Both the position numbers and the translations under genes were made by a program. DNA of 15,393 nt from an archaeon. GTDB lineage: Archaea > Iainarchaeota > Iainarchaeia > Iainarchaeales > 1-14-0-10-31-34. Shown piece after piece: positions 2,063-15,393 of the stretch; the stretch's first letter is position 1, and each line of letters starts with the position of its first letter. Location: positions 1-15,393 of the forward strand of contig JBDRFE010000030.1 in the NCBI GenBank assembly GCA_043819075.1, read 5' to 3'. Under the pieces are notes generated by a model. The model worked only from the letters and a program-made list of their open reading frames with translations. It made no database searches and had not been told where the DNA came from.

Positions 2063-2095
2063 TTAATTTTGCCAAAGTCGCTCAACTCTTTGCAT
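2063..2095 (-). CDS. Putative leader peptide MQRVERLWQN (10 aa) containing frameshift site 1 (CTT TGG C, 2077-2071)
   Basis: ATG CAA AGA GTT GAG CGA CTT TGG CAA AAT TAA; the ATG lies 23-30 nt downstream of a TATA box, consistent with a leaderless transcript. Confidence 0.65.
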   Translation of the reverse strand: MQRVERLWQN

Positions 2096-2117
2096 AAAAT
2101 AACTGGATAAAAAAAAG

Positions 2118-2125
2118 TATTTAAA
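2118..2125 (-). promoter_or_regulatory. Archaeal TATA box (TTTAAATA) for the leader/kinase/trpB2 transcript
   Basis: Consensus-like TATA at -30..-23 relative to ATG 2095. Confidence 0.55.
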
Positions 2126-2177
2126 GGCATTGCATGAAACAGCAGTTTTTTTAACAGGAAAAGCCTTTATTTTGAAC

Positions 2178-2654
2178 ATGAAAAATAAAAAAGAAAAAGG
2201 ACCGTTAGAAAAGTGGGCTGACTTCTTTTACTCAAACAACAAATTTTCATTCAAAAAACTGGCATTGATTTATTTTTTTCTCGTGATTTTAATTCTTTTA
2301 CAGGGCATAAATGACTGCGAAGAATCAATTAGTTTTTGTTTAACCCAAATAAAATTAACTCCCTTGTTTTTTGCAGTAGTTTTTGGCTTGCCTTTAATTG
2401 CATTGGCTCTCGCTTTCTTTCTGGTTTGGATTGAAAAAAACACTAAAATGAATCCTAAAATTTTTTTGGGAATAATTATTTTTATTCCAATGATAAGTCT
2501 TCTAATAGGCGGAACATTATACAGAATAATAAACAAGCAAGATCTCGCGGGAATTTTATTGTTGTGGGGAATTGTGCTGGTTTCGTTTGTAGCTGCATTT
2601 CTTTACATAAAAGTGCCTGAATTTATAAGAAAAAAATTCGGCAGAAAGCATTAG
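2178..2654 (+). CDS. Hypothetical membrane protein (about 4 TM helices)
   Basis: ORF 2130..2654 with four hydrophobic segments. ATG 2178 (MKNKKEK) is preferred over TTG 2130. Confidence 0.7.
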   Translation: MKNKKEKGPLEKWADFFYSNNKFSFKKLALIYFFLVILILLQGINDCEESISFCLTQIKLTPLFFAVVFGLPLIALALAFFLVWIEKNTKMNPKIFLGIIIFIPMISLLIGGTLYRIINKQDLAGILLLWGIVLVSFVAAFLYIKVPEFIRKKFGRKH

Positions 2655-2691
2655 TTTTTTTAACAACAAAAGCGTTAATATTGTTGATTAA

Positions 2692-3363
2692 ATGATTCCA
2701 GAAGACCAGATTGAAGCTTTAGTTGAAAAATATATTAAGCACGGGCAAACCATTGGAATCGGCTCAAGCGAATTAGGAGTAAAGTTTTTAAAAAAAATGG
2801 CTTTAAAAAAAGAAATTGAAAGCCTTGAATTAAAAATTGTTCCGACTTCAGCTGAAATGACTTTAATTTTAAAACAATTAAACTTGGAAATGGGTTCACT
2901 TGATGAAAAAGAAGTTGATGTAGCAATAGAGTTCGCTGATTTAGTTGACCACAGCTATAATTATGTTAAAAGGCAGTCAAAAAGTTTTGTCAGGGACAAA
3001 ATGATTGCACAAAGCGCTGAAACACTTATTATTGTAACAGAAAAAAAGAATTTTGTTTCAAGATTATTCGGGGTTGTGCCATTTGAAGTTTCTCCTTTCT
3101 GGTGGAAGAGAACTAAACTTCAGTTAGAAAGCATGGGTGCGGCAAAAGAAAGAAAAACAGGAGAAAGCTTAACTAAAACTGAATCAGGAAACTATATAAT
3201 TGATGTTTTAACTGATTCAATTCCTTCGCCGGAAGAATTTGAGTATCAGGCAAAAGAAATTCCCGGAGTACTAGAAACAGGATTGTTTGTAGGCTATGCA
3301 GACAGAATCATATTATACGATAAAGGCAAAATTGAAGTTAAAAGCAGAATAGGCAAAGAGTAA
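2692..3363 (+). CDS. rpiA: Ribose-5-phosphate isomerase A family protein with divergent active-site motifs
   Basis: Overall RpiA pattern: TIGIGS, IVPTS, DVAIEFADLVD, VPFEVSPF, TESGNYIID, IPGVLETGLF. Confidence 0.8.
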   Translation: MIPEDQIEALVEKYIKHGQTIGIGSSELGVKFLKKMALKKEIESLELKIVPTSAEMTLILKQLNLEMGSLDEKEVDVAIEFADLVDHSYNYVKRQSKSFVRDKMIAQSAETLIIVTEKKNFVSRLFGVVPFEVSPFWWKRTKLQLESMGAAKERKTGESLTKTESGNYIIDVLTDSIPSPEEFEYQAKEIPGVLETGLFVGYADRIILYDKGKIEVKSRIGKE

Positions 3364-3424
3364 TTTAATCTGCTTCTGTTATTCTTTAAATGCTTTCCAT
3401 AAAGAAATATTAAATCCAGTATTC

Positions 3425-3499
3425 GCCGGTGTAGCTCAGCCTGGTTAGAGCGTTTGACTCATAATCAAAAGGTCGAGGGTTCAAATCCCTCCACCGGCA
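3425..3499 (+). tRNA. tRNA-Met (CAT), elongator type, no intron, CCA not encoded
   Basis: Acceptor GCCGGTG/CACCGGC, anticodon arm TTTGA-CTCATAA-TCAAA, T arm GAGGG-TTCAAAT-CCCTC. Confidence 0.93.
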
Positions 3500-3634
3500 T
3501 ACTTTCTTTTATTTTTTAAAGGAAAGGTTTTGAGAAAGTTGTTCTTAGTTTTTAATGGAATTCTAACTTGATGCCATTTGAAATTATCTTTTAGATTGTT
3601 CATAAAGTTCAGTGGCAAGATACTCTCAAAAGCG

Positions 3635-3642
3635 TTTATAAA
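3635..3642 (+). promoter_or_regulatory. TATA box (TTTATAAA) with upstream purine-rich BRE for the LAGLIDADG gene/tRNA-Glu
   Basis: CAAAAGCG-TTTATAAA beginning 29 nt before ATG 3664. Confidence 0.55.
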
Positions 3643-3663
3643 TCACAAAATCAAGATTTCAAT

Positions 3664-4620
3664 ATGAAGTATGTTGAGAATTCTGAAAAAAGAATAAAAC
3701 TAATTAAAGGAAAACAAAAAGAGTTATTGCATGAAGCAAAGAGTAAAGCAAAATTTAGCTGGTCTGAATTAGCCGCATATCTTAACATTTCTAGCGGATA
3801 TCTTAGAAATGAGTTAAGAAAAGAAGTTTGGACGTTAAGAGAAGATTTATATAGAAAGTTAGTGAAGTTAGCAGGGCAAAACTATGATACTGAAATAGAA
3901 AAAATGCTTGAGAGCAACTGGGGGCAAATAAAAGGTGGCAAAAATAGTTATAGCCAGCCTAAAAAATCTAGGTTATTAATAACAGAACCTAATGAAACTC
4001 TCGCAGAATTAATTGGAATAATGCTTGGAGACGGCAACATGTATGAGATGAAAGAAAAAAGCATTTATCAAACAAGAGTATTTGGGCATAAGGTTGATGA
4101 TTGGGATTACATAACAAAATGGGTGAGTAATATATTTGAAAAGTTGTTTGACATTACTCCTCAAATTAATTACTTAAAAGACGTGCAAGTTGTAATACTA
4201 TTCAAACAAAGCAAACACTTAAATTTCACTTTAAAACATTTTGGACTGAAACCAGGAAACAAGGTGACAAACAACGCTTCAATACCTCAATGGGTTTTTG
4301 ATAACAAAAAATATCTTGAAGCTTGTATTAGGGGCCTTATAGACACTGATGGCAGTATATGCCCAAAAACAAAAAGACACAAAACACCTAGTATTTGGTT
4401 CTGCAATGCTTCTCCAAATATAAGAAGAGACTTTAATAAAGCCTTAAAAATTTTAGGATACAGTGTTTCTAAATGGGTGGTGAAGAAAAACAGAAACAGT
4501 CAAGACTGTTCAATAGGAAATGCTAATGCTGTGTGGAGATACTACAAAGAAATAGGATTTAGCAATCCAAAACATAAAAAAAGATTTGAAATGTTCTGGA
4601 AAAAAGCCCCGATGGTCTAG
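3664..4620 (+). CDS. Free-standing two-motif LAGLIDADG (DOD-type) homing endonuclease-like protein with N-terminal HTH-like region
   Basis: LAELIGIMLGDG and IRGLIDTDGS motifs; SWSELAAYLNISSGYL is HTH-like; C-terminal IGFSNPKH. The last 15 nt lie inside tRNA-Glu. Confidence 0.88.
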   Translation: MKYVENSEKRIKLIKGKQKELLHEAKSKAKFSWSELAAYLNISSGYLRNELRKEVWTLREDLYRKLVKLAGQNYDTEIEKMLESNWGQIKGGKNSYSQPKKSRLLITEPNETLAELIGIMLGDGNMYEMKEKSIYQTRVFGHKVDDWDYITKWVSNIFEKLFDITPQINYLKDVQVVILFKQSKHLNFTLKHFGLKPGNKVTNNASIPQWVFDNKKYLEACIRGLIDTDGSICPKTKRHKTPSIWFCNASPNIRRDFNKALKILGYSVSKWVVKKNRNSQDCSIGNANAVWRYYKEIGFSNPKHKKRFEMFWKKAPMV

Positions 4621-4680
4621 TTCGGTTAAGGATTCTGGCCTCTCAAGCCAGCGACGCGGGTTCAAATCCCGCTCGGGGCA
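4606..4680 (+). tRNA. tRNA-Glu (CTC)
   Basis: Acceptor GCCCCGA/TCGGGGC, anticodon arm CTGGC-CTCTCAA-GCCAG, T arm GCGGG-TTCAAAT-CCCGC. Confidence 0.95.
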
Positions 4681-4684
4681 TTTT

Positions 4685-4792
4685 CGCGATTTCGCTAGCC
4701 GATTTCGCTCGGCTGTCACGAGGCACGACATAAAGTCGTGCTAGCATGGCTTTACGCCATGCACAGATGTCAACTGGCTGGGCAGTTGCGCG
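4685..4792 (+). ncRNA. GC-rich four-hairpin element in the tRNA-Glu trailer, related to the tRNA-Thr intron
   Basis: Hairpins at 4696-4715, 4722-4742, 4744-4762 and 4771-4788. Segment 4722-4750 matches 9128-9156 at 23/29 nt with compensatory changes. Confidence 0.55.
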
Positions 4793-4797
4793 GCAGT

Positions 4798-5820
4798 TTA
4801 GCCAAAGCATCTGCAGCGCCCAGAAGTATTGCAGACTCCTAATGTTCTTCCCTGACTGACACAATAAGCATCACAACAGCCAGGGTCACATATTACAGGG
4901 CACTCTGTTTGTGGCAGGCAGCCGTAATCGCAGGTCCTGTCATGGCATAACTGCTCATTAACACAGTAATCTGCTCCCCATGAAGTACAAGAATCATCAA
5001 CGCATTGAGTTTGGACATCACAACCTAAACTGCAAGTTCTTGTCTGCTGTGTTTGATTTAAATCACAGCTTCCTCCGCCGCAGACACCATCAAGCCATGC
5101 AGTGCAAGAATCATTAACACATTGAGTTTGCGGGGCACAACCAAAATTGCATGTTCTAGTCTGGTATAATTGAATTGAACTGCAACCGTTTCCGCCGCAA
5201 GAATTATCTGCCCAAGCACTGCAAGAATCATCAATGCATTGTGATTCAATATCACAGCCAGCCGGATTACAGGATCTTGTCTGCTGCATTTGGTCAGAAG
5301 AACAGCTTCCTCCGCAAAAAACATTATTCCATGAACCGCAACTGCATGATGCAACTGAAGAAGGAAGAATTTTTCCTGCAATAGGTTTTTGTCCTGTAAA
5401 AATGTTTCCTGTAATAACACCAGAAGAATAAGTTAATTTTACTTCAAATTCATAGTTTTCTCCGCTTGAACCAGCAACCCCTGTTATACCTGAAACAGTC
5501 GCAATTTGCCCTGCAGGAATAATTACATCTGGTTGAACTCCAATGTCAATTCCATTAACAGTTATTTCAGTTAAAGTAATCGGCTTAGCGTCCAAATTTT
5601 GGACAACAAAAACTGCTTCAGTTGGTTCAGTTGTTATTTTCCATTCCTTTAATGAAAGAGGATAAGTTGTATTCCAGTAAATTTTGCTTTGGTTTTCGTT
5701 TATTCCAGTGGATAAACCTGAAACGCCTCCAAAAACCCCTACTACAACCAAAGCAATAACTATCAATAACCCAATTAAAACCAGGTATTCAACTGTCCCT
5801 TGCCCTTTAACTGAAAACAT
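4798..5820 (-). CDS. Class III signal peptide (archaeal type IV pilin-like) protein with Cys-rich TSP1-like repeats
   Basis: KG/QGTVEYLVLIGLLIVIALVVVG prepilin motif, followed by a beta-rich domain and C-x-x-W...C...QTRTC...C repeats. The start is ATG 5820 or 5835. Confidence 0.85.
   Translation of the reverse strand: MFSVKGQGTVEYLVLIGLLIVIALVVVGVFGGVSGLSTGINENQSKIYWNTTYPLSLKEWKITTEPTEAVFVVQNLDAKPITLTEITVNGIDIGVQPDVIIPAGQIATVSGITGVAGSSGENYEFEVKLTYSSGVITGNIFTGQKPIAGKILPSSVASCSCGSWNNVFCGGSCSSDQMQQTRSCNPAGCDIESQCIDDSCSAWADNSCGGNGCSSIQLYQTRTCNFGCAPQTQCVNDSCTAWLDGVCGGGSCDLNQTQQTRTCSLGCDVQTQCVDDSCTSWGADYCVNEQLCHDRTCDYGCLPQTECPVICDPGCCDAYCVSQGRTLGVCNTSGRCRCFG
4895..5345 (-). repeat. Intragenic degenerate tandem repeat, 117-nt (39-aa) unit, about 4 copies
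   Basis: CAAGAATCAT recurs at 4988, 5105 and 5222 (117-nt spacing), and the protein repeats are visible in the translation. Confidence 0.8.
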
Positions 5821-6404: not shown

Positions 6405-7595
6405 TCAGGCTAAAAGGTTTGGCGCAAACAATAAAATTAATCCAAGCACAACAAGAATTGCGCCGCCTAAAATCTTGCAGTAAACAGCATACTTTTGCAT
6501 GAAACTGCTGTTAACTGCAAAAGCCGCAAAACCAAAAATAACCATGTCATCTAACATGAAAAAAAAGTCGTAAACCAGAATATAAAAATAATGCTCAAAA
6601 AAAGAGAGATTGCTTAAAACAAGAATCTGCGTAAAAACAGCCGGAATAGCAGAAGAACAGACAAACTCAATTGAATTAACAACAAAAGCCAAAGCAAAAA
6701 CACCAAAAATTACTGCCAAAGACAAGGGCTGGGAAATTAATTCATTAATTTTATTCATTGTCGTTTTATGAGAACTTTCGTCTCCAACTTTACAGGTTAA
6801 ATTTCCTTTTGAATCAAAAAATTCTTTGACACTTAAAATTCCTCCGCCTAAAGCAAGTAATCCAATTAAAACAGTTAGAAATCTGATGTAACCTAAAAAC
6901 AGAAAAACATTAAGCCAGGCAGTCATAAACAAAAAATAAAGCAAACCAGAAGCAAAAACAAAACTGCCAACAACAATCCAGGTTCTCTTCTTGTCCTTTA
7001 CATTAGCTAAAACTGCAATCAAGTAAACCAAGACCCACATTGCACAAGGATTGAATCCGTCAATCAAGCCCAAAACAACTGCCAGAACAGGAATGGAAAA
7101 AGAAGTCAAATTGGTTTTGCCTAAAAAAGGCAAATCAAATTCAGTTAAAGCAGTTGAACTTCTTTCATCTGGTTTAATTGCTTCATTGTTTTGTGCACTG
7201 GAAATCGCATCCAAGATTTCCTGTTTTGAATGCACTCCAACCAAAGCCTGGTTTCCGATAAAAGTAGTCGGAGTCCTGATAACAGAAGAATCAATGCCGG
7301 TTTTTACAGCCAATTCAAGATACAATTTAGAGCCATCAACAGTTGAAGCATCATTGAAGACAAAAGAAAATTCAGGCAATTCATTTTGGAGTTCAAGAAT
7401 AATTGGTTTTTGTTCAGCACAATGAGGGCATTCCGGGAGAAAAAAATAATTTACAGTCAAATTGTTTCCTGAAACCTGCTGCTGGTTTGCATCAAAAGGA
7501 AAAAAAACAATAAAGCCTCCGAGCAGAACAAGAAAAACAACAAGAAACAAATTAAATTTTGGCTTAAGAAAATTTCTTAAAAAAGAAAGGTCCAT
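6405..7595 (-). CDS. Thioredoxin/glutaredoxin-like domain fused to a DsbD/CcdA-like multi-pass membrane domain
   Basis: N-terminal TM helix, CPHC and TPT (cis-Pro) motifs, then DGFNPCAMWVL and EFVCS membrane cysteines within about 6 TM helices. Confidence 0.82.
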   Translation of the reverse strand: MDLSFLRNFLKPKFNLFLVVFLVLLGGFIVFFPFDANQQQVSGNNLTVNYFFLPECPHCAEQKPIILELQNELPEFSFVFNDASTVDGSKLYLELAVKTGIDSSVIRTPTTFIGNQALVGVHSKQEILDAISSAQNNEAIKPDERSSTALTEFDLPFLGKTNLTSFSIPVLAVVLGLIDGFNPCAMWVLVYLIAVLANVKDKKRTWIVVGSFVFASGLLYFLFMTAWLNVFLFLGYIRFLTVLIGLLALGGGILSVKEFFDSKGNLTCKVGDESSHKTTMNKINELISQPLSLAVIFGVFALAFVVNSIEFVCSSAIPAVFTQILVLSNLSFFEHYFYILVYDFFFMLDDMVIFGFAAFAVNSSFMQKYAVYCKILGGAILVVLGLILLFAPNLLA

Positions 7596-7604
7596 GAAAA
7601 CACT

Positions 7605-7925
7605 TTAGTCGTTAACTCTTTTAATTTTATTGCCGGAAAAACAATAGTTTCCTCCTTCAATCCTGATTGCTTTGCCTTTAACTATTGCTTCGGCAATCTT
7701 TTTTCTTGCGCCAAGAATCAGCCTGTGGAAAGTCGGCTGGGAAATATTCATTTTTTTTGCACAATCATCTTGGTCTAATCCAACTAAATCCTTTAATCTC
7801 ACAGCCTCAAATTCTTCAACCGAAACAATTACTTCTTCCAGTTCCCTTAATTTGATTCCGGCTGGCTTAAAGTAAGTTATGTCTGGTTCTGAATGAACTC
7901 TTCTGAATCTTCTTGGCCTGACCAT
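7605..7925 (-). CDS. DUF134 (UPF0251) family putative DNA-binding regulator
   Basis: [40 protein letters not shown]...ARKKIAEA...GKAIRIEGG. Confidence 0.92.
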
Positions 7926-7926
7926 T

Positions 7927-8184
7927 TCAATCCTTTATTTCTTTAAGTTTTTCTTCAATTGCTTTCTTTTCGTCTTCAATGTCTTTTAACTCTTCTTGAA
8001 GAATTTTTTTTTCTTCTTCATTGGTTAAAGGCCTGCTGAAAGGTTCGTCATAGAAACCAAAGTTTCTGAATCCTCTTCCGAAACCTCTTCTAAAGCCTCT
8101 TCCGCATCCTTTTCTGCAATAACCAAAACCTCTTCCTGTTAAAGGGCCTCTTCCAGCAGGTCCAAATCCATTATAGCCAGGCAT
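7927..8184 (-). CDS. DUF5320 family small Gly/Arg-rich protein with C-terminal coiled coil (85 aa)
   Basis: SD GGAGGT (8197-8192) precedes ATG 8184; [27 protein letters not shown] repeats and an E/K-rich helix. Confidence 0.85.
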
Positions 8185-8206
8185 AATTATTACCTCCTTT
8201 AAATTT

Positions 8207-8284
8207 TTATTTACATTTTCCTTTTTTTCTTCCTGTTTTTGGTCCTTTTCCTTCAGGGCCTTTTCCATCTTTATTCGGCATCAT
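8207..8284 (-). CDS. 25-aa micro-protein MMPNKDGKGPEGKGPKTGRKKGKCK (stand-alone DUF5320 N-terminal motif)
   Basis: Own SD GGAGGT just upstream, TAA stop at 8209-8207; matches the MPxxDGxGPxGxGPxTGRxxGxC motif. Absent from the ORF track. Confidence 0.7.
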   Translation of the reverse strand: MMPNKDGKGPEGKGPKTGRKKGKCK

Positions 8285-8308
8285 GAATACCTCCATTAAA
8301 ATTCTGTA

Positions 8309-8337
8309 ATGAATATATATTCATAACACTATTTAAA
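8309..8337 (-). promoter_or_regulatory. TATA box (TTTAAATA, 8337-8330) followed by perfect 16-bp palindrome ATGAATATATATTCAT (8309-8324), a putative operator
   Basis: The palindrome lies between the TATA box and the first RBS of the operon that contains the DUF134 regulator. Confidence 0.65.
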
Positions 8338-8970
8338 GGTTTTGGCCTGAAAAATTGCGTTAAAATCTTCTTTACTTAGCTCGCACAGCCTTTTGTCTTC
8401 AAAGAAAGCATTTCCTTTTTTCGGAAGAATTTTCCAAATAGAATTAAAGCCTTGTTTTTTTATTTTATCAAAATAGTTTTTTATGTTTTCATAATGCGCC
8501 TGAGATTTTTCCTGAAAATCTTTTTCATGCTTAAAGCCTTGTTTCAGTAAAGCGCAGAAAGAATAACTTTTTTTAAAATCGGTTTCTTTTTTCAGTGAAA
8601 TGAATGGAAACAACTTGCATTGCATTGGCTTTGCTTCATGAATAGTGCATAACCCGTTTTCAAGGAAAACACAGTGTTCTTTTTTCTTTAAAGAAATGTT
8701 TGGCAGAACAAAAAAATAATCTGAATCAGAGTGCTTTTCCAGTTTTTCAAGAATTTTTTCCGGAACCACCTGTTTTTTTACTGCAAAAAAGTTTTCTGTT
8801 TTTCCTGAAGGAAAAAACTGCAGCATTAACTCACAGTTTTTTTCAATAAACTCTTTTTTGCTTAAACCCAGTTTTTTTGCTATTTTTTCTGCTTCTTTTG
8901 GCAGTAAAGTGATATTATACCTTTTACAGCATTCCTGGCAGGCAGAACAAATGCTTTTAATTGATTTCAT
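8329..8970 (-). CDS. YkgJ/FliB-like cysteine-cluster (Zn or Fe-S) protein
   Basis: CSACQECC ... CVFLENGLCTIHEAKPMQCKLFPF ... C. Confidence 0.88.
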   Translation of the reverse strand: MKSIKSICSACQECCKRYNITLLPKEAEKIAKKLGLSKKEFIEKNCELMLQFFPSGKTENFFAVKKQVVPEKILEKLEKHSDSDYFFVLPNISLKKKEHCVFLENGLCTIHEAKPMQCKLFPFISLKKETDFKKSYSFCALLKQGFKHEKDFQEKSQAHYENIKNYFDKIKKQGFNSIWKILPKKGNAFFEDKRLCELSKEDFNAIFQAKTFK

Positions 8971-9012
8971 TAAAAAGTATTTATTGCTTTAGTTCTTTTA
9001 ATTAAAGCGTTT

Positions 9013-9240
9013 GCCTCTATAGCTCAGTGGTAGAGTGACTGACTTGTACAACCGTTTCGCCGGTTGGTAACGAAGTACGGGATAAACCCGTACATGCTTC
9101 GCAACCGTCACGATCAGTTGGTATGCGGGCACGGCGTAAAACCGTGCTAGCAGGACTGAACGAAGTGAATGTCCTGCACCGTTACTCTCGAGCGGAATCG
9201 AGAAATCAGTAGGTCGGGGGTTCAAATCCCCCTAGAGGCT
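9013..9240 (+). tRNA. tRNA-Thr (TGT) with a 156-nt intron at the canonical 37/38 position
   Basis: Acceptor GCCTCTA/TAGAGGC, anticodon stem ACTGA/TCAGT, loop CTTGTA|A, T arm GGGGG-TTCAAAT-CCCCC. Exons 9013-9048 and 9205-9240. Confidence 0.93.
9049..9204 (+). other. Long, highly structured BHB-type tRNA intron
   Basis: CTTG (positions 32-35) pairs with intron CGAG (9199-9202); 3-nt bulges TA|C and AA|A; at least six internal helices. Confidence 0.85.
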
Positions 9241-9260
9241 TCCTTCAAAAAAGTAAAGCC

Positions 9261-9407
9261 CTATTTCATTTTTGTCTTTTTTTGTGGTTTGTCCCAGTAA
9301 TGGCTTTTGCATTTAGGGCAAACTAAAGGCTTGCCTTTTTTGGTTCTTGCCACCCAAATATGTTTACATCTTTCACATTTGCATCCAAATAATTTAACTT
9401 TAGCCAT
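9261..9407 (-). CDS. 48-aa zinc-ribbon protein MAKVKLFGCKCERCKHIWVARTKKGKPLVCPKCKSHYWDKPQKKTKMK
   Basis: Translated by hand (ATG 9407, TAG 9263-9261); CxxC-x-H-x-W ... CPxCxS-x-YW pattern. Confidence 0.85.
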   Translation of the reverse strand: MAKVKLFGCKCERCKHIWVARTKKGKPLVCPKCKSHYWDKPQKKTKMK

Positions 9408-9470
9408 ATAATTACTATAATATGCCAAACAGAATTTAAGTGTTTTAGGTTACCACGCACTGCAAAAAAA

Positions 9471-10307
9471 GCTTCGAATAATTTGTTTTTCACGCCCTAA
9501 AGGCTTTTAAAGACAAATCAGGCAAATATTATTAATTGTTTTAATTCACTAATTGTTAAATGAATGAATTTAAAGTGGACGAAGAATTCGGCAGAAAATC
9601 ATATTCCCTCCAATCAATGGATAAAAAAAAGTTACAGGAAATTGCCGCTGATTTAGGATATAAAATAGACTATGCATGGCATCCTTTATACAGTGAAATA
9701 TTCGGGGTTAGTAAAAGCAATCCAAAAAATACTTTTTTTCAAGAAAGTCTGATTCTACATGATTTAAATAATGAAGGCCCAATATATGAGAAATTTTTAA
9801 CAGAAGAAAGAGAAAATCCAGAATTTAAAAAAAAAGCTAAAATGGATTATGAAGAACTGAAAAAGAATGGAGAAACAGATGAATCAATTATGAACAGCCA
9901 TCAAGATGATGCCCTTGATTATTGGCATGATGGAGAATTAAACAAAATTGCAGACAAAAAAATGTTTAAAAGGTATGGTGGGGTAATTTTTTATAACAAG
10001 GAACAAGAAAAAGAATACGAAAAAATGATGGAATGGGGCTATGATTACTTTGCAGAAAGAAACATATTACATTTAAAAACCATTAATTCTAATAAACCAA
10101 AAGTTTTATTGTTCCTTGACCATAAAAATTTTGGCTACAACTCTCAAAAAATCAACGAAACTCAATGGAAAAAATACTTAAACATCATGCAAAAAAAACT
10201 AGAAAAATCATAAAACTGTTTTTAACTGCTTTTACACCATATTTTTATTGTAAACCAAAAAGCCTGATAGGCTTTGAATAATTTGTTTTCCTAGTCCTAG
10301 AGGCTTT
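9471..10307 (+). repeat. 37-bp imperfect direct repeat (9471-9507 and 10271-10307) flanking the 217-aa gene
   Basis: GCTTCGAATAATTTGTTTTTCACGCCCTAAAGGCTTT vs GCTTTGAATAATTTGTTTTCCTAGTCCTAGAGGCTTT: 31/37 identical, 800 nt apart. Confidence 0.8.
9560..10213 (+). CDS. Hypothetical soluble protein (217 aa)
   Basis: Long ORF with normal composition; no family recognised. Confidence 0.7.
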   Translation: MNEFKVDEEFGRKSYSLQSMDKKKLQEIAADLGYKIDYAWHPLYSEIFGVSKSNPKNTFFQESLILHDLNNEGPIYEKFLTEERENPEFKKKAKMDYEELKKNGETDESIMNSHQDDALDYWHDGELNKIADKKMFKRYGGVIFYNKEQEKEYEKMMEWGYDYFAERNILHLKTINSNKPKVLLFLDHKNFGYNSQKINETQWKKYLNIMQKKLEKS

Positions 10308-10482
10308 GGCCTTTTAGCCAAGGAAAACCAAAAAGTTAAAATAAAAGTTTAAACTTATTGCAAACTATTACAGAAGAGAAATAAGTCCTTTTAAGCAGAA
10401 AAAGCCATGTTGTTTCTTTAACTATTTTTTTTATTTTTCTCTTAAAGTTAACTTTATATTTGATTAATACATAAAATACTGT

Positions 10483-11937
10483 ATGAACAAAATACTGTTA
10501 ATTTTCTTAATAATTACATTAACAATCTCTTTCGGCTGCCTTGAAGAAAAAAACGGAATTGGAAAAGCAGTCAAACTTATTCCTGCCGACAATATAGCCA
10601 TAGAAAAAACAAGCACAATTCAAAAAGAAACGCATTCAAAATGCAGCAACCAACAATGTATTGAAGTGCAGGGGATAGGAACAAACGAATGCCGGTCAAA
10701 TTCTGATTGCACTGGCATGAATTTAGATGAAATGTTAAATATGTGTTATGGTTTAACACAACAAGAATGCAATCAATACAAAGTTAAATTTGTTAAAACA
10801 ATTATAGAAAAATACAAATATTATCACAAAAACTCAAACGAATTATTTAATCAATACGAAAAGGATAACTTATTTATTGAATGGGACAATAATCTTTCTG
10901 AAAGCATTGGAAGCCCTGTCGGGGGACATTTTACAGATCCTGTCTATTCTTATCCATTAACCAAAATATACAACACAGATTTCAACAGGGTGCTTGAAGA
11001 ACTCAAAAAAAAGCACATAATATTTAATTATTTTGTGCACGGAAACCCTACAACAGCAGGCTTTGGGTTAAACTTGAATGAAACAGAATCCGAAAGAAAC
11101 AAAATTTATACTACAAATGAGGAATTCATAAACTTTGCTTTTGAAAACGGTTCTCCGGCTCTTCTTGTTGACGCAAAAGCCTGTGGAAGCTGGATAATCT
11201 GGGACAATAAAGACCAGTTTTGTTGCTGGCCACAGGCAATGACCGGTTCAGGAGTATGGCTTTATATGGATCCTTTTGGTGGCTATGAATACCAGCAAAA
11301 TTTACAAAAAAAATTAAGTTCAGGAGAAATTGCAGGAAAATCTTTGCTTGAAGTTTCCAGAAGCGAACTATATTTGCATGGAGATATAACAGCGCATTTG
11401 CCTGGTAATGGAACAGAAGAACTTTCATGTGGATGGGCTAATAAATTAGGAGTTGATTGTGTTTGCAGCCCTCCAGAAGAAAAAAACAAACTTGGCATAA
11501 TAATAAAACAAAACGGAATTTACAATAATCCTGAATTAGTCAATTCAATTAATCAGTTCATAGATGCTGTTAAAATAGACACAGGAATTTCTGGAAGTTT
11601 ATATAAATTCAGTGGAAGTTCTTTTGAAGAACTAGACTCTTTCATTGAAAACTTGTATGACATTTCAAATGTGGCTTATGTGATAATAATTGGGACTGAC
11701 TTACCTGTAGCTGAAACAATTGAATCGGATGGATTACAGCTTGTGGGTGCACAAGAACTTGGAACAGTAAACAATGTAATAGAAAATGATATTGGCTGCT
11801 ATGATGTAGCCATTTCATATATACTGCCTCCTTTGCACTACCCTCAAAACTGCAAAAAAGGGGAAACCAATTGTGTTGAAGGGCAGTTATATAAATGCAA
11901 CGATTATAACTGGGTTTCAACAGGAGAAAATTGTTAA
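10483..11937 (+). CDS. Secreted lipoprotein-like clan CD (C25 gingipain-like) cysteine peptidase, apparently circularly permuted
   Basis: Signal peptide with SFGC lipobox-like motif; FNYFVHG (H186), LLVDAKACGS (C234), SGEIAGKSL and LYLHGD, followed later by YVIIIGTDLP. Confidence 0.6.
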   Translation: MNKILLIFLIITLTISFGCLEEKNGIGKAVKLIPADNIAIEKTSTIQKETHSKCSNQQCIEVQGIGTNECRSNSDCTGMNLDEMLNMCYGLTQQECNQYKVKFVKTIIEKYKYYHKNSNELFNQYEKDNLFIEWDNNLSESIGSPVGGHFTDPVYSYPLTKIYNTDFNRVLEELKKKHIIFNYFVHGNPTTAGFGLNLNETESERNKIYTTNEEFINFAFENGSPALLVDAKACGSWIIWDNKDQFCCWPQAMTGSGVWLYMDPFGGYEYQQNLQKKLSSGEIAGKSLLEVSRSELYLHGDITAHLPGNGTEELSCGWANKLGVDCVCSPPEEKNKLGIIIKQNGIYNNPELVNSINQFIDAVKIDTGISGSLYKFSGSSFEELDSFIENLYDISNVAYVIIIGTDLPVAETIESDGLQLVGAQELGTVNNVIENDIGCYDVAISYILPPLHYPQNCKKGETNCVEGQLYKCNDYNWVSTGENC

Positions 11938-12063
11938 TTTATGTTCATAAAAAATAGTTTTAATTTTTCATAAAAACAGGACAAATATACATCTTCCCCC
12001 TAGAGGCTTTTCCTGTTTTTTAACACAGCACTGTTTTTATTCTTTTTTGTCTGAGTATTTTTT

Positions 12064-12657
12064 ATGGAAAACAAAGGTGCGCCTAACAAAAGCATTGCAT
12101 TAATCATTTTAGCCTGCCTTATAGCAGGAATTGCCGGTGCGATGATATTTGAAGCATTTTTTTCTGCAAACAAGGAAAAAATTGCATTTGAAAAAACGGT
12201 TTCAGTTCCATTAACAGAAATTTCTTCTTACACTCTGCTACAGAGAATGAATGCAAACGATAACAGCTTTGTAATAGTTGATTCAAGAGACAAAACAGCA
12301 TATGATTTAGGGCACATTAAGGGAGCAATCTCAATGCCTTTAAGCGAAATTCCTTCACGTTACAAGGAACTGCCTGAAGGCAAAGACATTATAGTGTATT
12401 GCTGGAGCAGTGAATGCATGCTTAGCCCGACAGCTTCCTCTAAGCTGGCAGAGCTTGGAGTAAAAAACTTAAAGGAATTAAGGATTGGCTGGTGCGAGTG
12501 GAGCGAAAGAGGATTTCCAATTGAAGGAAAAAGATATGTATTAGAAGGAGAATGCTTTGTGCCCCAAAGAAGTTTTAACAACGAAGAAGTTGAAGTAATT
12601 AAAATCATTGACGCAAACTATTTGGAGCCATGCACTGCAGATGGAACAGGCTGTTAA
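12064..12657 (+). CDS. Membrane-anchored rhodanese-domain protein
   Basis: N-terminal TM helix; IVDSR...YDLGHIKGAISMP, IIVYCWS, LRIGWCEW...GFP. Confidence 0.9.
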   Translation: MENKGAPNKSIALIILACLIAGIAGAMIFEAFFSANKEKIAFEKTVSVPLTEISSYTLLQRMNANDNSFVIVDSRDKTAYDLGHIKGAISMPLSEIPSRYKELPEGKDIIVYCWSSECMLSPTASSKLAELGVKNLKELRIGWCEWSERGFPIEGKRYVLEGECFVPQRSFNNEEVEVIKIIDANYLEPCTADGTGC

Positions 12658-12663
12658 AAAAAA

Positions 12664-12951
12664 CTATTTTCTTTTTGAATGCTTTCTGAGAATTTTGTCT
12701 AATTCAAGCATTGTCTGCCTTGAATTAACGTCAGTAAAGGGCACTCTTTTTCCGCCAGGGTAAATCAAAGTAAGTTTTCCTGCACGCACAACAGAGGTAA
12801 AGCCAAGGGAAGAAAGCTTGTGCAAAGCCTGATTTGAATCCATTGCAGTCATTCTTGAGCCAATTTTGGCAACCCCAGAACCAATTCTGACAAGCTTTTT
12901 TCCAGCCATGTGCCTAAGATTTGCAAGCACATGCTTTTTCATTAAAGGCAT
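12664..12951 (-). CDS. Small basic hypothetical protein
   Basis: Fills the gap between neighbouring genes; the start is uncertain (12993, 12951 or 12942). Confidence 0.5.
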   Translation of the reverse strand: MPLMKKHVLANLRHMAGKKLVRIGSGVAKIGSRMTAMDSNQALHKLSSLGFTSVVRAGKLTLIYPGGKRVPFTDVNSRQTMLELDKILRKHSKRK

Positions 12952-13089
12952 GAAAAAACAAAGCCCAGTTTTTAATTTAAAGATAACGCACAAATAAGTT
13001 AATTTCTGGATAAAAAAAACAGTTTAATGGTTTTCTTAAAAGAAAAACTATTTATACTATAAAACTTTTAATATTGAGAAGGTGATGCA

Positions 13090-13527
13090 ATGGAAGAATC
13101 AATTCAGTTTGTAGCAAACATGAATGGCTGGATTTCAATCAAAAAATTAAAGGTAACAGAACAAACTAATCCAAAAAGCGTAATGGAGTTTCTGGCTTCC
13201 CTTGGAACAGGATTAGACAGGAAAGTTGAAGAAAATCTGGGAAAAATTGTTGAACTACAGAAACTGGATTCAGCTTTAAATGAAATTCTAAATGAAGCAG
13301 GGAAAAGCCCTGAAAAAATCATTCAGGAAGTGAACACAAGAAAAATTAATGCAATAATAAATGAATTAGTTGAAAAACCTCAATGGCGGAAAGGAGAAAA
13401 AAAAGAAGTCTCAGAATTTTTAAAAGTTTATGCAATGAAAAAAGCTTTAAAGAACATTAAAATAAGAGTGGATTACTCTGAAATAGAGATTCCGGGAATG
13501 AAGAAAGTAAAAAAAGCAAAGGTTTAA
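13090..13527 (+). CDS. Archaeal conserved protein, DUF2666-like
   Basis: SD GGTGA at 13081; the IQFVAN..GWISIKKL....T.PK.VMEFLASL N-terminus resembles DUF2666 (from recall). Confidence 0.65.
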   Translation: MEESIQFVANMNGWISIKKLKVTEQTNPKSVMEFLASLGTGLDRKVEENLGKIVELQKLDSALNEILNEAGKSPEKIIQEVNTRKINAIINELVEKPQWRKGEKKEVSEFLKVYAMKKALKNIKIRVDYSEIEIPGMKKVKKAKV

Positions 13528-13530
13528 TTC

Positions 13531-14403
13531 ATGGTATTAGAGTTCTCTGACACAACAATACTGCATGCAGTGCAAAACTTTCATCCAATTCCATTGTATT
13601 ACATGGATTACTTAATAAGGTTTTTAACTGAATTAGGGTCGCCTTTGTTATGGCTGTTTTTAGTGGCTTTTTTGTATTGGAGAGGAAAAGAAAAAGAATC
13701 CTTTCATTTAATGAACTTAATTGTTTTCTCTGTACTGGTTGTCGGAGCAGCAAAAGAATTCTTTCACAAGCCAAGGCCTTCGATTGACGAAGGATTCCGA
13801 GTATTAGTGCAAGAAAGATTCGGGGGGTTTGGCTTTCCTTCAGGGCATTCAACTACCATTGCAGCAATATTCGGCTACTACTTGAACAACAAAAACAAGT
13901 TAATTGTCGTAGGATTAGGGATTGCAACAATTTTAGTGGCTTATTCAAGGCTTTACTTAGGAGCACATTTTCCTTCAGATGTTGTTGTAGGAGTTGTGTT
14001 AGGAATATTAATCGGAATGAGCAACAACAGAGTGCTGAAAAGCCTGGAAAACTATTCTTTTAAGCTAAGCAAAATACAGGACGAAATTCTTATAGGAGTG
14101 CTAATTGCAATTGCATTATTGCTTCTTTTTTTGAGCCCAAAATTTGTTTACGGAGGATTATTCTTTGGCTATTACGCTGGATTCTTTTTCTTGAGAGAAA
14201 TAGATTTCGAGCAGAAAAAAATTTCAAAAAAAGAAGTAACAGAAAAAACAGTTATTGGCTTTATCGGAATGGCTTTGCTGACAGCACCAATAATTTTGCA
14301 GCCAGAATTTATTTCAGATTCAGTGCAGTTTGCTTTAATGCTGTTTTTAGGTTTATGGGTTTCACTGATTGTTCCAGTGTTATACGAAAAAACAAGAAAA
14401 TAA
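13531..14403 (+). CDS. PAP2 family membrane phosphatase
   Basis: K.....PRP, FPSGH and SRLYLGAHFPSDV catalytic motifs; multiple TM helices. Confidence 0.93.
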   Translation: MVLEFSDTTILHAVQNFHPIPLYYMDYLIRFLTELGSPLLWLFLVAFLYWRGKEKESFHLMNLIVFSVLVVGAAKEFFHKPRPSIDEGFRVLVQERFGGFGFPSGHSTTIAAIFGYYLNNKNKLIVVGLGIATILVAYSRLYLGAHFPSDVVVGVVLGILIGMSNNRVLKSLENYSFKLSKIQDEILIGVLIAIALLLLFLSPKFVYGGLFFGYYAGFFFLREIDFEQKKISKKEVTEKTVIGFIGMALLTAPIILQPEFISDSVQFALMLFLGLWVSLIVPVLYEKTRK

Positions 14404-14430
14404 AAAAAAAGAAAAAGTGGATTAAAAGCA

Positions 14431-14628
14431 TCATTTTTTCATAAAAGAAACGTAAATCATGTATAATGCTGACAATCCAACTAATACATAAACTAGTTGA
14501 GCCAGAACAGGAATTGAGCCAAAAATGATTTTAACCAAATCCATATTAGCTATTCCGACTAAACCCCAGTTCAGTCCTCCTATAATGACTAAAACCAAGG
14601 CAATTACATCCACAATGTTTTTCTCCAT
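14431..14628 (-). CDS. DUF378 family small membrane protein
   Basis: LVLVIIGGLNWGLVG...DLV..IFG......VYVLVGLSALY; GGAGG-type SD upstream of ATG 14628. Confidence 0.9.
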   Translation of the reverse strand: MEKNIVDVIALVLVIIGGLNWGLVGIANMDLVKIIFGSIPVLAQLVYVLVGLSALYMIYVSFMKK

Positions 14629-14769
14629 AAACCACCCTCCAAAAACCATAACGGCTATAATTTAAACAAAAAACTGCAATATAATGGTTTGCATTCCCAA
14701 AAAAAACAGAAAAGGCTTTAAATTCTTCAAACCACTACTTCTTAATCATTTTTTAATGATAAAAAGGAA

Positions 14770-14931
14770 CCCGCCTTTGCATAGTAGTAGTGCGCTCGGC
14801 TGTAGTTTTTTGCAAACACTGAAAAAGGTGTTAGGAGTGACAGCTGTACTGAGCAAAGCGAAGTACTGCGTTGTTGCGTCCGATCGAAATCGGACACCGA
14901 GAGGTCCCCGGTGCAAATCCGGGAGGCGGGA
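14770..14931 (+). tRNA. tRNA-Tyr (GTA) with a 90-nt intron at 37/38 (14806-14895)
   Basis: Acceptor CCCGCCT/AGGCGGG (C1-G72, A73), anticodon stem CTCGG/CCGAG, loop CTGTAG|A, T arm CCCGG-TGCAAAT-CCGGG. Confidence 0.92.
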
Positions 14932-14953
14932 TTATACCGACTGTAATGAGTTA

Positions 14954-15393
14954 GTGGTTAGCGGTAAGCAGTACGACATATACTCTTCAGAAAAAAGGCT
15001 GTCTTCTGCGCTAACCAGTCTCTCAACTTCTTCAATTTTAGATTCAAACAAAGAATTGATTGTAAAATTCATTCATTCAATGAAAGCTCAAGGAATCAAA
15101 GCAATACGATTAAAAAAATCTGTTTATATGCTCCGTGACTTAGCCTTAATCCTCAATAAGCCATTTGATTCAGCAGACAAACAAGACATTGAATCTCTTT
15201 TATGTGAATTGGAGTCAAGGAATTATTCTGCCTGGACTAAATCTGATTACAAGATTATTCTAAAAAGGTTCTATAAATGGCTTTTAGGTGAAGATGAAGT
15301 TTATCCTCGTATCATTAGTTGGATTAAGAATAAAGAGCCAAAAAATGGGATTTTGCCTGAAGAACTGATTACGGAGCAAGAGGTAATTCAATT
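14954..15393 (+). CDS. Tyrosine recombinase/integrase, N-terminal part (runs off the window)
   Basis: Hand translation from GTG 14954: ...YDIYSSEKRL...NKELIVKF...KPFDSADKQDIE...YSAWTKSDYKIILKRFYKWL...YP...SWIK...LPEELITEQEV, typical of the core-binding domain of archaeal tRNA-adjacent integrases. The catalytic residues are outside the window. Confidence 0.82.
   Translation, partial: MVSGKQYDIYSSEKRLSSALTSLSTSSILDSNKELIVKFIHSMKAQGIKAIRLKKSVYMLRDLALILNKPFDSADKQDIESLLCELESRNYSAWTKSDYKIILKRFYKWLLGEDEVYPRIISWIKNKEPKNGILPEELITEQEVIQ

Follow-up and report, generated by a model that had tools for sequence, protein, structure and literature searches.

The 3' end of a tRNA-Thr(TGT) gene is a repeatedly reused integration site that probably carries a stack of miniature islets in an archaeon

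The tRNA-Thr(TGT) gene's 3' end in a 15,393-nucleotide (nt) archaeal sequence (contig JBDRFE010000030.1; hereafter the window) is a site that has been reused repeatedly by mobile DNA and is not an integron. The window is the whole of contig C30 of a 1.24-Mb assembly that is 90.6% complete (genome G000), whose gene content and size suggest a small-genome (DPANN-type) host. Downstream from the tRNA gene, short units without an integrase lie between copies of a core derived from the tRNA end; in relatives the same site is empty or differently filled, the breakpoints fall at the cores, integrase-bearing elements are found there, and the arms beside the cores are homologous between units. We consider it probable that repeated site-specific integration combined with internal deletion produced a tandem stack of miniature islets resembling cis-mobilizable elements (CIMEs). 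From this pattern we infer the order of events, the origin by deletion, the fusion of units, and later excision or transfer.

RESULTS

The attachment core. Comparisons covered five congeners at the locus (G001 to G005), a family member outside the congener set (G006), nine genomes of the family, and 196 genomes of the order; G labels denote genomes of relatives, with G000 the window's own, and L labels denote fetched loci or contigs, some of which are metagenome contigs that duplicate G001 or G004 sequence and hence are not independent. Four sequencing runs, X1 and X4 among them, were compared as assembled contigs only, and the low-share runs X6 to X8 were left out. The four copies of CCTARAGGCTT reported by a first-pass annotation of the window are exact, at 9231, 9496, 10296, and 11999, all on the forward strand; the corresponding 12-nt cores start at 9230, 9495, 10295, and 11998, core-to-core length is the distance between successive cores, and core index 3 is tRNA position 66. 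With at most one mismatch, the 11-mer matches the window five times against 0.71 expected, and the whole assembly contains six exact copies, four of them inside the window. The G form occurs three times genome-wide, always in the window, against 0.10 expected, and the A form three times against 1.18 expected. The motif is thus not common in the genome, and a terminator-like or genome-wide repeat was rejected, since four of the six exact copies and all G forms sit at this locus. Across the order, 56 of 196 genomes match the core pattern, with at least three matches on one contig only in G000 and G002; most of the 10 other matches inspected lie inside open reading frames (ORFs). ARAGORN missed the window tRNA with introns off and miscalled it as tRNA-Ser with introns on; its identity is confirmed by the intronless ortholog in G005, which is called Thr(tgt). 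The intron of this gene measures 156 nt in the window and 99 nt in G003; many other tRNA genes of G000 also have long introns (76 to 185 nt).

The same site in relatives. The site is empty, with the tRNA directly before the DUF2666 gene, in the congeners G003 and G005 and in the family member G006. In G002 it holds three units with other cargo (650, 3,400, and 972 bp, with one, three, and one gene). G001, in which the tRNA lies at a contig end, carries the lipoprotein gene of window unit 3, a core, and then a 400-bp unit in the place of the rhodanese gene of the window; in G004 the contig breaks at the tRNA, and another contig begins at a core followed by two other genes. Searching metagenomes for the tRNA end yielded 20 loci: eight from close kin, two with DUF2666-like synteny, and 10 nonsyntenic loci that were set aside, except for short duplications in L045 and L058. 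Three close-kin loci have an integrase (L055, L056, and L057), three have other cargo (L043, L050, and L059), and two end too early; of the syntenic pair, L054 is empty and L047 has one gene and no second core. In L043 a glycosylation unit of 4 kb is followed by a core and then by a 41-amino-acid (aa) stub of the 217-aa gene of window unit 2, whose neighbors there are thus different ones. Serial site-specific insertion at the tRNA 3' end, as opposed to one decayed provirus, is borne out by the empty sites, the differing cargo, and the shared sequence edges at cores: gene order is not fixed across relatives, and shared sequence begins or ends at cores. Units in relatives span 0.4 to 4.0 kb core to core and hold one to about five genes, so "single-gene" does not stand as a rule; co-orientation and short size hold for window units 2 and 3, and unit 1 is reversed.

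The units of the window. Each of the three intervals contains exactly one gene, as had been read from the sequence, with ORFs of 55 aa (reverse strand), 217 aa (forward), and 484 aa (forward), and the 37-bp context common to the two inner cores is present at 84% identity. No recombinase is encoded inside the array: scanning 9242-13022 with a profile built from 30 related integrases revealed no remnant, and both controls matched; the Pfam and NCBIfam searches of the unit cargo gave no integration or transfer family. Units 1 to 3 keep both core ends, and the arm motifs of units 1 and 2 match those of complete elements at fixed offsets. The extent first given for the array, 9227 to 12020, covers three real units and is probably too short: the rhodanese region 12010-13021, which empty sites lack, is probably a fourth unit closed by a worn core (13022-13033). 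This decayed core lies 68 nt before the DUF2666 start in both the window and G001, the G001 copy being less worn, and the intact core at empty sites lies 65 or 72 nt before it. Decay of the outermost core is seen in the window, G001, and L043.

Partner integrases and complete elements. In three metagenome loci an integrase gene lies 62 to 63 nt after the core, intact in L055 and L057 and broken in L056. The L055 and L057 integrases are of the tyrosine type (PF00589), with weak SAM-like matches and a CxxC..CxxC tail, and the L055 element also encodes a primase-polymerase. Homologs occur in 60 of the 196 order genomes; among the best 30 loci, 23 lie behind a tRNA 3' end (for 22 of these the match is no more than 200 nt away), four have too little upstream DNA, and three have no tRNA. 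The order-mate G140 carries a complete 6,255-bp integrase element at the orthologous site, in the order tRNA-Thr, element, one gene, DUF2666, PAP2, tRNA-Tyr. Its cargo is surface-protein-like, and a 57-aa reverse-strand gene, helix-turn-helix (HTH)-like as read from its sequence, precedes the right end; window unit 1 likewise has a small reverse-strand gene before its right end. Unit 1 looks like the two ends of an element of which only the terminal small gene is left. Such a right-end gene is possibly a directionality factor or regulator. Small reverse-strand genes (AbrB-like, HTH-like, or zinc ribbon) often lie just inside right ends elsewhere (L043, the G000 islet on contig C9, and L175).

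In the G000 assembly, at its 90.6% completeness, no integrase of the L055 type was found. Its integrases are XerA, the sole full PF00589 protein, which passes the XerA model (273 versus 220) and fails that of IntI (205 versus 265), and a family member represented by its N-terminal part alone, which follows tRNA-Tyr at the end of the window contig; neither is of the L055 type. A genome-collection scan for the integrase gave no match. Three viral scans for a free or viral attachment site (attP) gave one, zero, and six loci, and the pattern matches, all inside ORFs, were taken as chance.

Proposed mechanism. On the reading that we favor, tyrosine-integrase elements of about 4 to 17 kb form a family that attaches to the chromosome at the tRNA-Thr(TGT) 3' end, with the integrase start about 60 nt after the core and two arms predicted to be symmetric about tRNA position 66. 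Each integration would restore the tRNA and leave a 12-nt core downstream, and repeated integration would therefore stack units. Later the elements would shed the integrase along with most of their inner part, both ends being kept, which gives CIME-like one-gene islets of 0.27 to 1.7 kb; deletions across a core would join the left end of one unit with the right end of a different unit, and the integrase of a later incoming element could excise or rearrange units at cores. The islets may supply strain-specific surface and accessory genes.

Arm symmetry and homology. When the ends of 12 units were rejoined, two-fold symmetry peaked at core index 3 (0.41 versus 0.22 to 0.34 at 32 other centers), and no such peak was seen across nine cross-core junctions. 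Because this center had been chosen from units 1 and 2 of G002 (22 and 19 of 30), it was tested independently in a scan of 20 regions, 18 with a usable tRNA. Position 66 was the best center in seven of nine integrase-bearing units with two ends; one of the nine had first been misflagged as integrase free, and its right end is doubtful. Over the eight remaining tRNA-Thr units, core index 3 was best by a narrow margin (81 of 216; next best, 76; mean, 63). An AGGCTT-like hexamer, a candidate integrase-binding site, lies at -26 in 7 of 14 distal cores, spread over four arm types, against a background of 0.7% per position. The G140 element has a right arm that agrees at 8 of 11 positions, with an identical offset, with each of the right arms of window units 1 and 2. 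In unit 1, arm X is similar to the arm that precedes the L055 integrase (P = 0.003, uncorrected, the best among 21 comparisons), and the left arms of units 2 to 4 are mostly unlike it. The exact pattern of arm A is confined to G000 and G002 among the 196 order genomes, and a scan for arm plus core gave 13 loci, 2 of them matching the G002 array and 11 from unrelated organisms.

Several results weigh against integration followed by deletion. The symmetry peak was absent from all three integrase-free units of the independent set and from three of four islets at other tRNAs, the center being best only in the tRNA-Gly islet of G000; the window's own three units are weakly symmetric (13, 11, and 13 of 30), with core index 3 ranking second. 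The same arms accompany unrelated cargo (arm X in three units, Y in four, A in four, and B in three), and homology mostly ends at the arm edge (index 30 to 31 in three of three pairs for X and 37 to 45 in five of six for Y), tidier edges than random deletion predicts, so that an origin by random deletion is strained. No parent element was found in which this cargo accompanies arm X, A, or B, a profile search of 10 integrase-free stretches gave no integrase stubs, and the assembled contigs of the four runs contain neither circles nor joints at cores. Arm homology and the end-regulator layout do fit a deletion origin, and internal deletion of the larger integrase-bearing elements that relatives carry at this site would account for much of what was observed.

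A model of cassettes mobilized in trans also stays alive, although we give it distinctly less credence than the deletion model: arms of ~70 bp (-35 to +41) would be a reusable handle, and small integrase-free circles with one or a few genes would be made, passed on, and inserted by an integrase acting in trans. This is the mechanism of the first-pass annotation stripped of its integron features. The recurrence of arms with unrelated cargo, their sharp edges, and the lack of integrase stubs all suit it, as do the well-matched symmetric ends of G002 unit 1 (650 bp, one gene; 22 of 30) and the different neighbors of the 217-aa and lipoprotein units in G000, G001, and L043. Excision from a longer ancestral stack could also produce those differing neighbors, however, and no circle or empty-site joint was seen in the contigs. 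Two different arrays were never found to share an identical unit, and unit 1 resembles the regulator end of a full element. Divergence of the lipoprotein gene between G000 and G001 at four-fold sites is 0.39, like that of four flanking genes (0.27 to 0.42), so a recent transfer of this unit is not supported.

The array as one old island. The same lipoprotein divergence fits vertical descent, which would also be expected if the array were one old mosaic island, now fixed, with inner cores left by past tandem integrations or duplications and with variation arising by homologous recombination between strains. The absence of a cognate integrase from the assembly and the arm A shared by units 1 and 2, explicable by duplication, agree with such an island, and in run X1 a single contig carries the same array. 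That contig spans 9319-14409, with no differences over 9319-12011 and 30 substitutions over 12012-13909. All 30 lie at or after a position three bases past core 4, which is suggestive only; homologous recombination also explains this boundary, because the region upstream from the tRNA is near-identical too. Cores and arm motifs have nonetheless stayed intact at fixed offsets while the cargo of congeners was replaced outright, and we regard a single fixed island as improbable. Farther along the same run, 14409-14661, including a 72-aa ORF (14431-14649), is replaced by 63 other bases.

Inverted repeats and the integron question. The three inverted repeats described around the downstream cores are present, at 10 to 11 nt with one mismatch allowed. 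Repeats of that length arise by chance at about 8% of places (19 of 231 pairs of noncognate arms and 49 of 600 intergenic sites picked at random), so that three of three window junctions exceed chance alone and cannot be fully explained. A general role for them did not survive comparison: only one of eight junctions in other genomes has one, and the junctions without a repeat include some that share window arms. The repeats match one unit's end to the beginning of the unit that follows, their centers differ, and the repeat at core 4 is broken by a C-to-T allele (position 12012) that runs X1 and X4 carry. Core 2 folds no better than shuffled sequences, and two of the three junctions beat shuffles on at least one strand. 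With one in eight junctions elsewhere and no symmetry peak over nine junctions, the repeats were rejected as recombination signals.

A true integron, or a cluster of attC sites lacking an integron integrase (CALIN), would recombine attC hairpins as folded single strands by IntI. One gene per interval, a repeat at every window junction, and the better-than-shuffled folding of two of them are what such a system would look like. The attC pattern is RYYYAAC..GTTRRRY. It is absent within 150 nt of all four cores on both strands; the L055 and L057 integrases score 52 bits on TIGR02249 (IntI) against a cutoff of 265; the core is the tRNA end; and the fold is not conserved. The term "integron-like" in the first-pass annotation accordingly fails as a statement of membership, and we hold a true integron to be very improbable indeed.

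Cargo and flanking genes. Coordinates are collected in Table 1. The zinc-ribbon protein of unit 1 is probably a small regulator of a mobile element; its homologs occur in five of nine family genomes, several adjoining transposase or restriction-type genes. The 217-aa protein occurs in 1 of 196 order genomes and has three homologs at 52 to 54%. The unit 3 lipoprotein occurs in 4 of 196, with its ortholog upstream of a core in G001. It had been called a peptidase-like lipoprotein; a signal for secretion or lipid anchoring can be read from its sequence, and the peptidase part is a weak lead without a Pfam or NCBIfam match. Structure leads have atlas scores below 0.9 and template modeling (TM) scores by query of at most 0.39 to C25/CHAT folds, and a peptidase assignment is not established. 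The rhodanese query matches one of nine family genomes.

Table 1. Features of the array and its flanks, with two islets on other contigs of the same assembly
Feature	Position	Strand	Remarks
CxxCxxCC/YkgJ-like gene, left flank	8329..8970	-	PF03692; upstream of tRNA-Thr in 5/5 congeners
tRNA-Thr(TGT), 156-nt structured intron at 9049-9204	9013..9240	+	3' end is the attachment site; G005 ortholog intronless
Core 1 (left attachment site, attL)	9230..9241	+	Final 11 tRNA nt and 1 more; inferred symmetry center 9233 (tRNA position 66)
Left arm X, unit 1	9242..9261	+	Common to L043 and L050 (unrelated cargo); resembles arm before L055 integrase
Unit 1 cargo, 55-aa CxxC..CxxC zinc-ribbon protein	9261..9428	-	Weak NF038384 match, below cutoff
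Right arm A, unit 1	9469..9494	+	AGGCTT-like hexamer at -26..-21
Core 2, one mismatch	9495..9506	+	Core-to-core length of unit 1, 265 bp
Unit 2 cargo, 217-aa protein, no family match	9560..10213	+	Pfam/NCBIfam negative
Right arm A, unit 2 (AAGCCT-N3-AGGCTT)	10260..10294	+	Common to G002 unit 3 and L043 unit 2
Core 3	10295..10306	+	Core-to-core length of unit 2, 800 bp
Unit 3 cargo, 484-aa Cys-rich secreted or lipid-anchored protein	10483..11937	+	Signal read from sequence
Right arm B, unit 3	11962..11997	+	Common to G001 (same cargo) and L059 (AAA ATPase cargo)
Core 4	11995..12009	+	15 nt identical to tRNA end; unit 3 is 1,703 bp
Unit 4 cargo (probable), membrane-anchored rhodanese	12064..12657	+	PF00581; absent from empty sites
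Doubtful ORF after rhodanese	12664-12993	-
Core 5, probable, decayed	13022..13033	+	6/12 to core; 9/12 to decayed copy in G001
DUF2666, right flank	13090..13527	+	Directly after tRNA at empty sites
Islet on C9 of G000 (tRNA-Glu)	near 2065-5154		Integrase free by profile scan
Islet on C59 of G000 (tRNA-Gly)	near 6730-9943		Integrase free by profile scan; ends symmetric

Islets at other tRNAs. Integrase-free islets of 3,015 and 3,040 bp, with five to six ORFs, lie behind tRNA-Glu(TTC) and tRNA-Gly(CCC) in G000. In G001 (contig C37; L025, 2920-5820) tRNA-Tyr is followed by two integrase-free units bounded by tRNA-end copies, one of 1,465 bp with one long ORF and one of 1,267 bp whose three ORFs seem to include an antitoxin-toxin pair. 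In G109 (contig C84; L183), tRNA-Thr(CGT) is separated from a complete integrase element of 7.7 kb by an integrase-free unit of 778 bp; the insertion order there is ambiguous because the right boundary of the unit copies the whole T-arm. GC-rich hairpins stand directly 3' of several G000 tRNAs and are duplicated with the boundary of the tRNA-Glu islet. At the end of the window (14770-15393), an intron-containing tRNA-Tyr directly precedes a tyrosine integrase that is cut off by the contig end, so that its N-terminal part alone is present; a close homolog occupies the same site in G007, and a contig of run X1 carries other sequence after 14931. The right ends of the G006 tRNA-Asn and G007 tRNA-Tyr elements were looked for and not found. 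Near the other end of the window, an ORF with a LAGLIDADG domain (3664-4620) lies between tRNA-Met and tRNA-Glu; G005 lacks it between the same tRNAs.

DISCUSSION

The array functions like a stack of gene cassettes without being an integron, and we think that it is best filed, with fair though not high confidence, as a miniature archaeal case of CIME-type accretion at a tRNA gene. The formation and accretion of CIMEs have been described (PMC5704250), as have integrase loss and tandem integration in archaea (PMC8371274; see also PMC6563490). As in CIMEs (PMC5704250), the units lack an integrase, keep both attachment ends, and stand in tandem at a host gene 3' end used by integrase-bearing relatives, which here are L055, L056, L057, and G140. 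They differ from the CIMEs presented in that source in the archaeal host, in units down to 265 bp with one gene, in the same short arms with unrelated cargo, and in a mobilization that is only predicted; no conjugation genes were noticed in the partner elements that were read.

Other accretion systems share parts of this layout. The islands at Dehalococcoides ssrA likewise form tandems with direct repeats of an RNA-gene 3' end and a conserved motif just upstream of the repeat, and 15 of them lack an integration module (PMC3146451). According to the same account, a serine recombinase module and a transfer-messenger RNA target are used there, in contrast to the tyrosine integrase, tRNA-Thr, and 12-nt core found here. 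Prochlorococcus tycheposon islands (bioRxiv 10.1101/2020.12.28.424599) also have partial tRNA copies between elements, with newer elements pushing older ones outward, and the primase-polymerase of L055 recalls the primase/polymerase genes that tycheposons can carry. As portrayed in that preprint, tycheposons encode an integrase and in many cases a replication module, use sites of about 40 nt, and have fragmented integrases in their islands; the partner element L055 has an integrase and a replication gene of this kind, and the window units have neither these nor integrase fragments. The archaeal SNJ2/pNOB8/XerA group resembles the partner elements in its short core at a tRNA 3' end (14 bp in SNJ2) and in its SAM-like and PF00589 domains (PMC5861418, PMC8371274), and tandem arrays and integrase loss are reported for it as well (PMC8371274, PMC6563490). 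The partner integrases differ in starting next to the core and in their CxxC..CxxC tail, their likeness to SNJ2 being one of domain content alone; one-gene units and DPANN hosts are not among the features of that group set out in the portions of these reports available to us (PMC5861418, PMC8371274, PMC6563490).

Integrons and CALINs, including archaeal ones (bioRxiv 10.1101/2022.02.06.479319), arrive at a similar outcome, with mostly co-oriented small gene units between recombination sites. Unlike them, the array has no IntI, attI, or attC; its site is a tRNA end; and its hairpins are not conserved. Compared with XerA-dif/pdif modules, the sites here are tRNA-end copies with the arms of a tRNA-integrase family. 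Our literature search, which left most subscription journals and supplements outside its range, returned no description of such arrays in DPANN archaea.

For a 1.2-Mb archaeon, such a site may be a route to gain and shed accessory genes one or a few at a time, by units that island finders needing an integrase would miss. The site, a candidate enzyme, and a predicted geometry (a 12-nt core, symmetry at tRNA position 66, and motifs about 24 to 38 bp either side) are all named, and mobilization in trans is therefore testable by a short plasmid assay. It is conceivable, if doubtful, that small archaea possess a tRNA-anchored cassette system free of integron components, in which symmetric arms of ~70 bp taken from tyrosine-integrase elements are joined at outer binding motifs to unrelated single genes and integrase-free mini-circles are exchanged and stacked by the integrases of passing elements. 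If the arms do capture unrelated genes in this way, they would constitute a cassette system independent of integrons; if they do not, the array would be an extreme miniature of known accretion.

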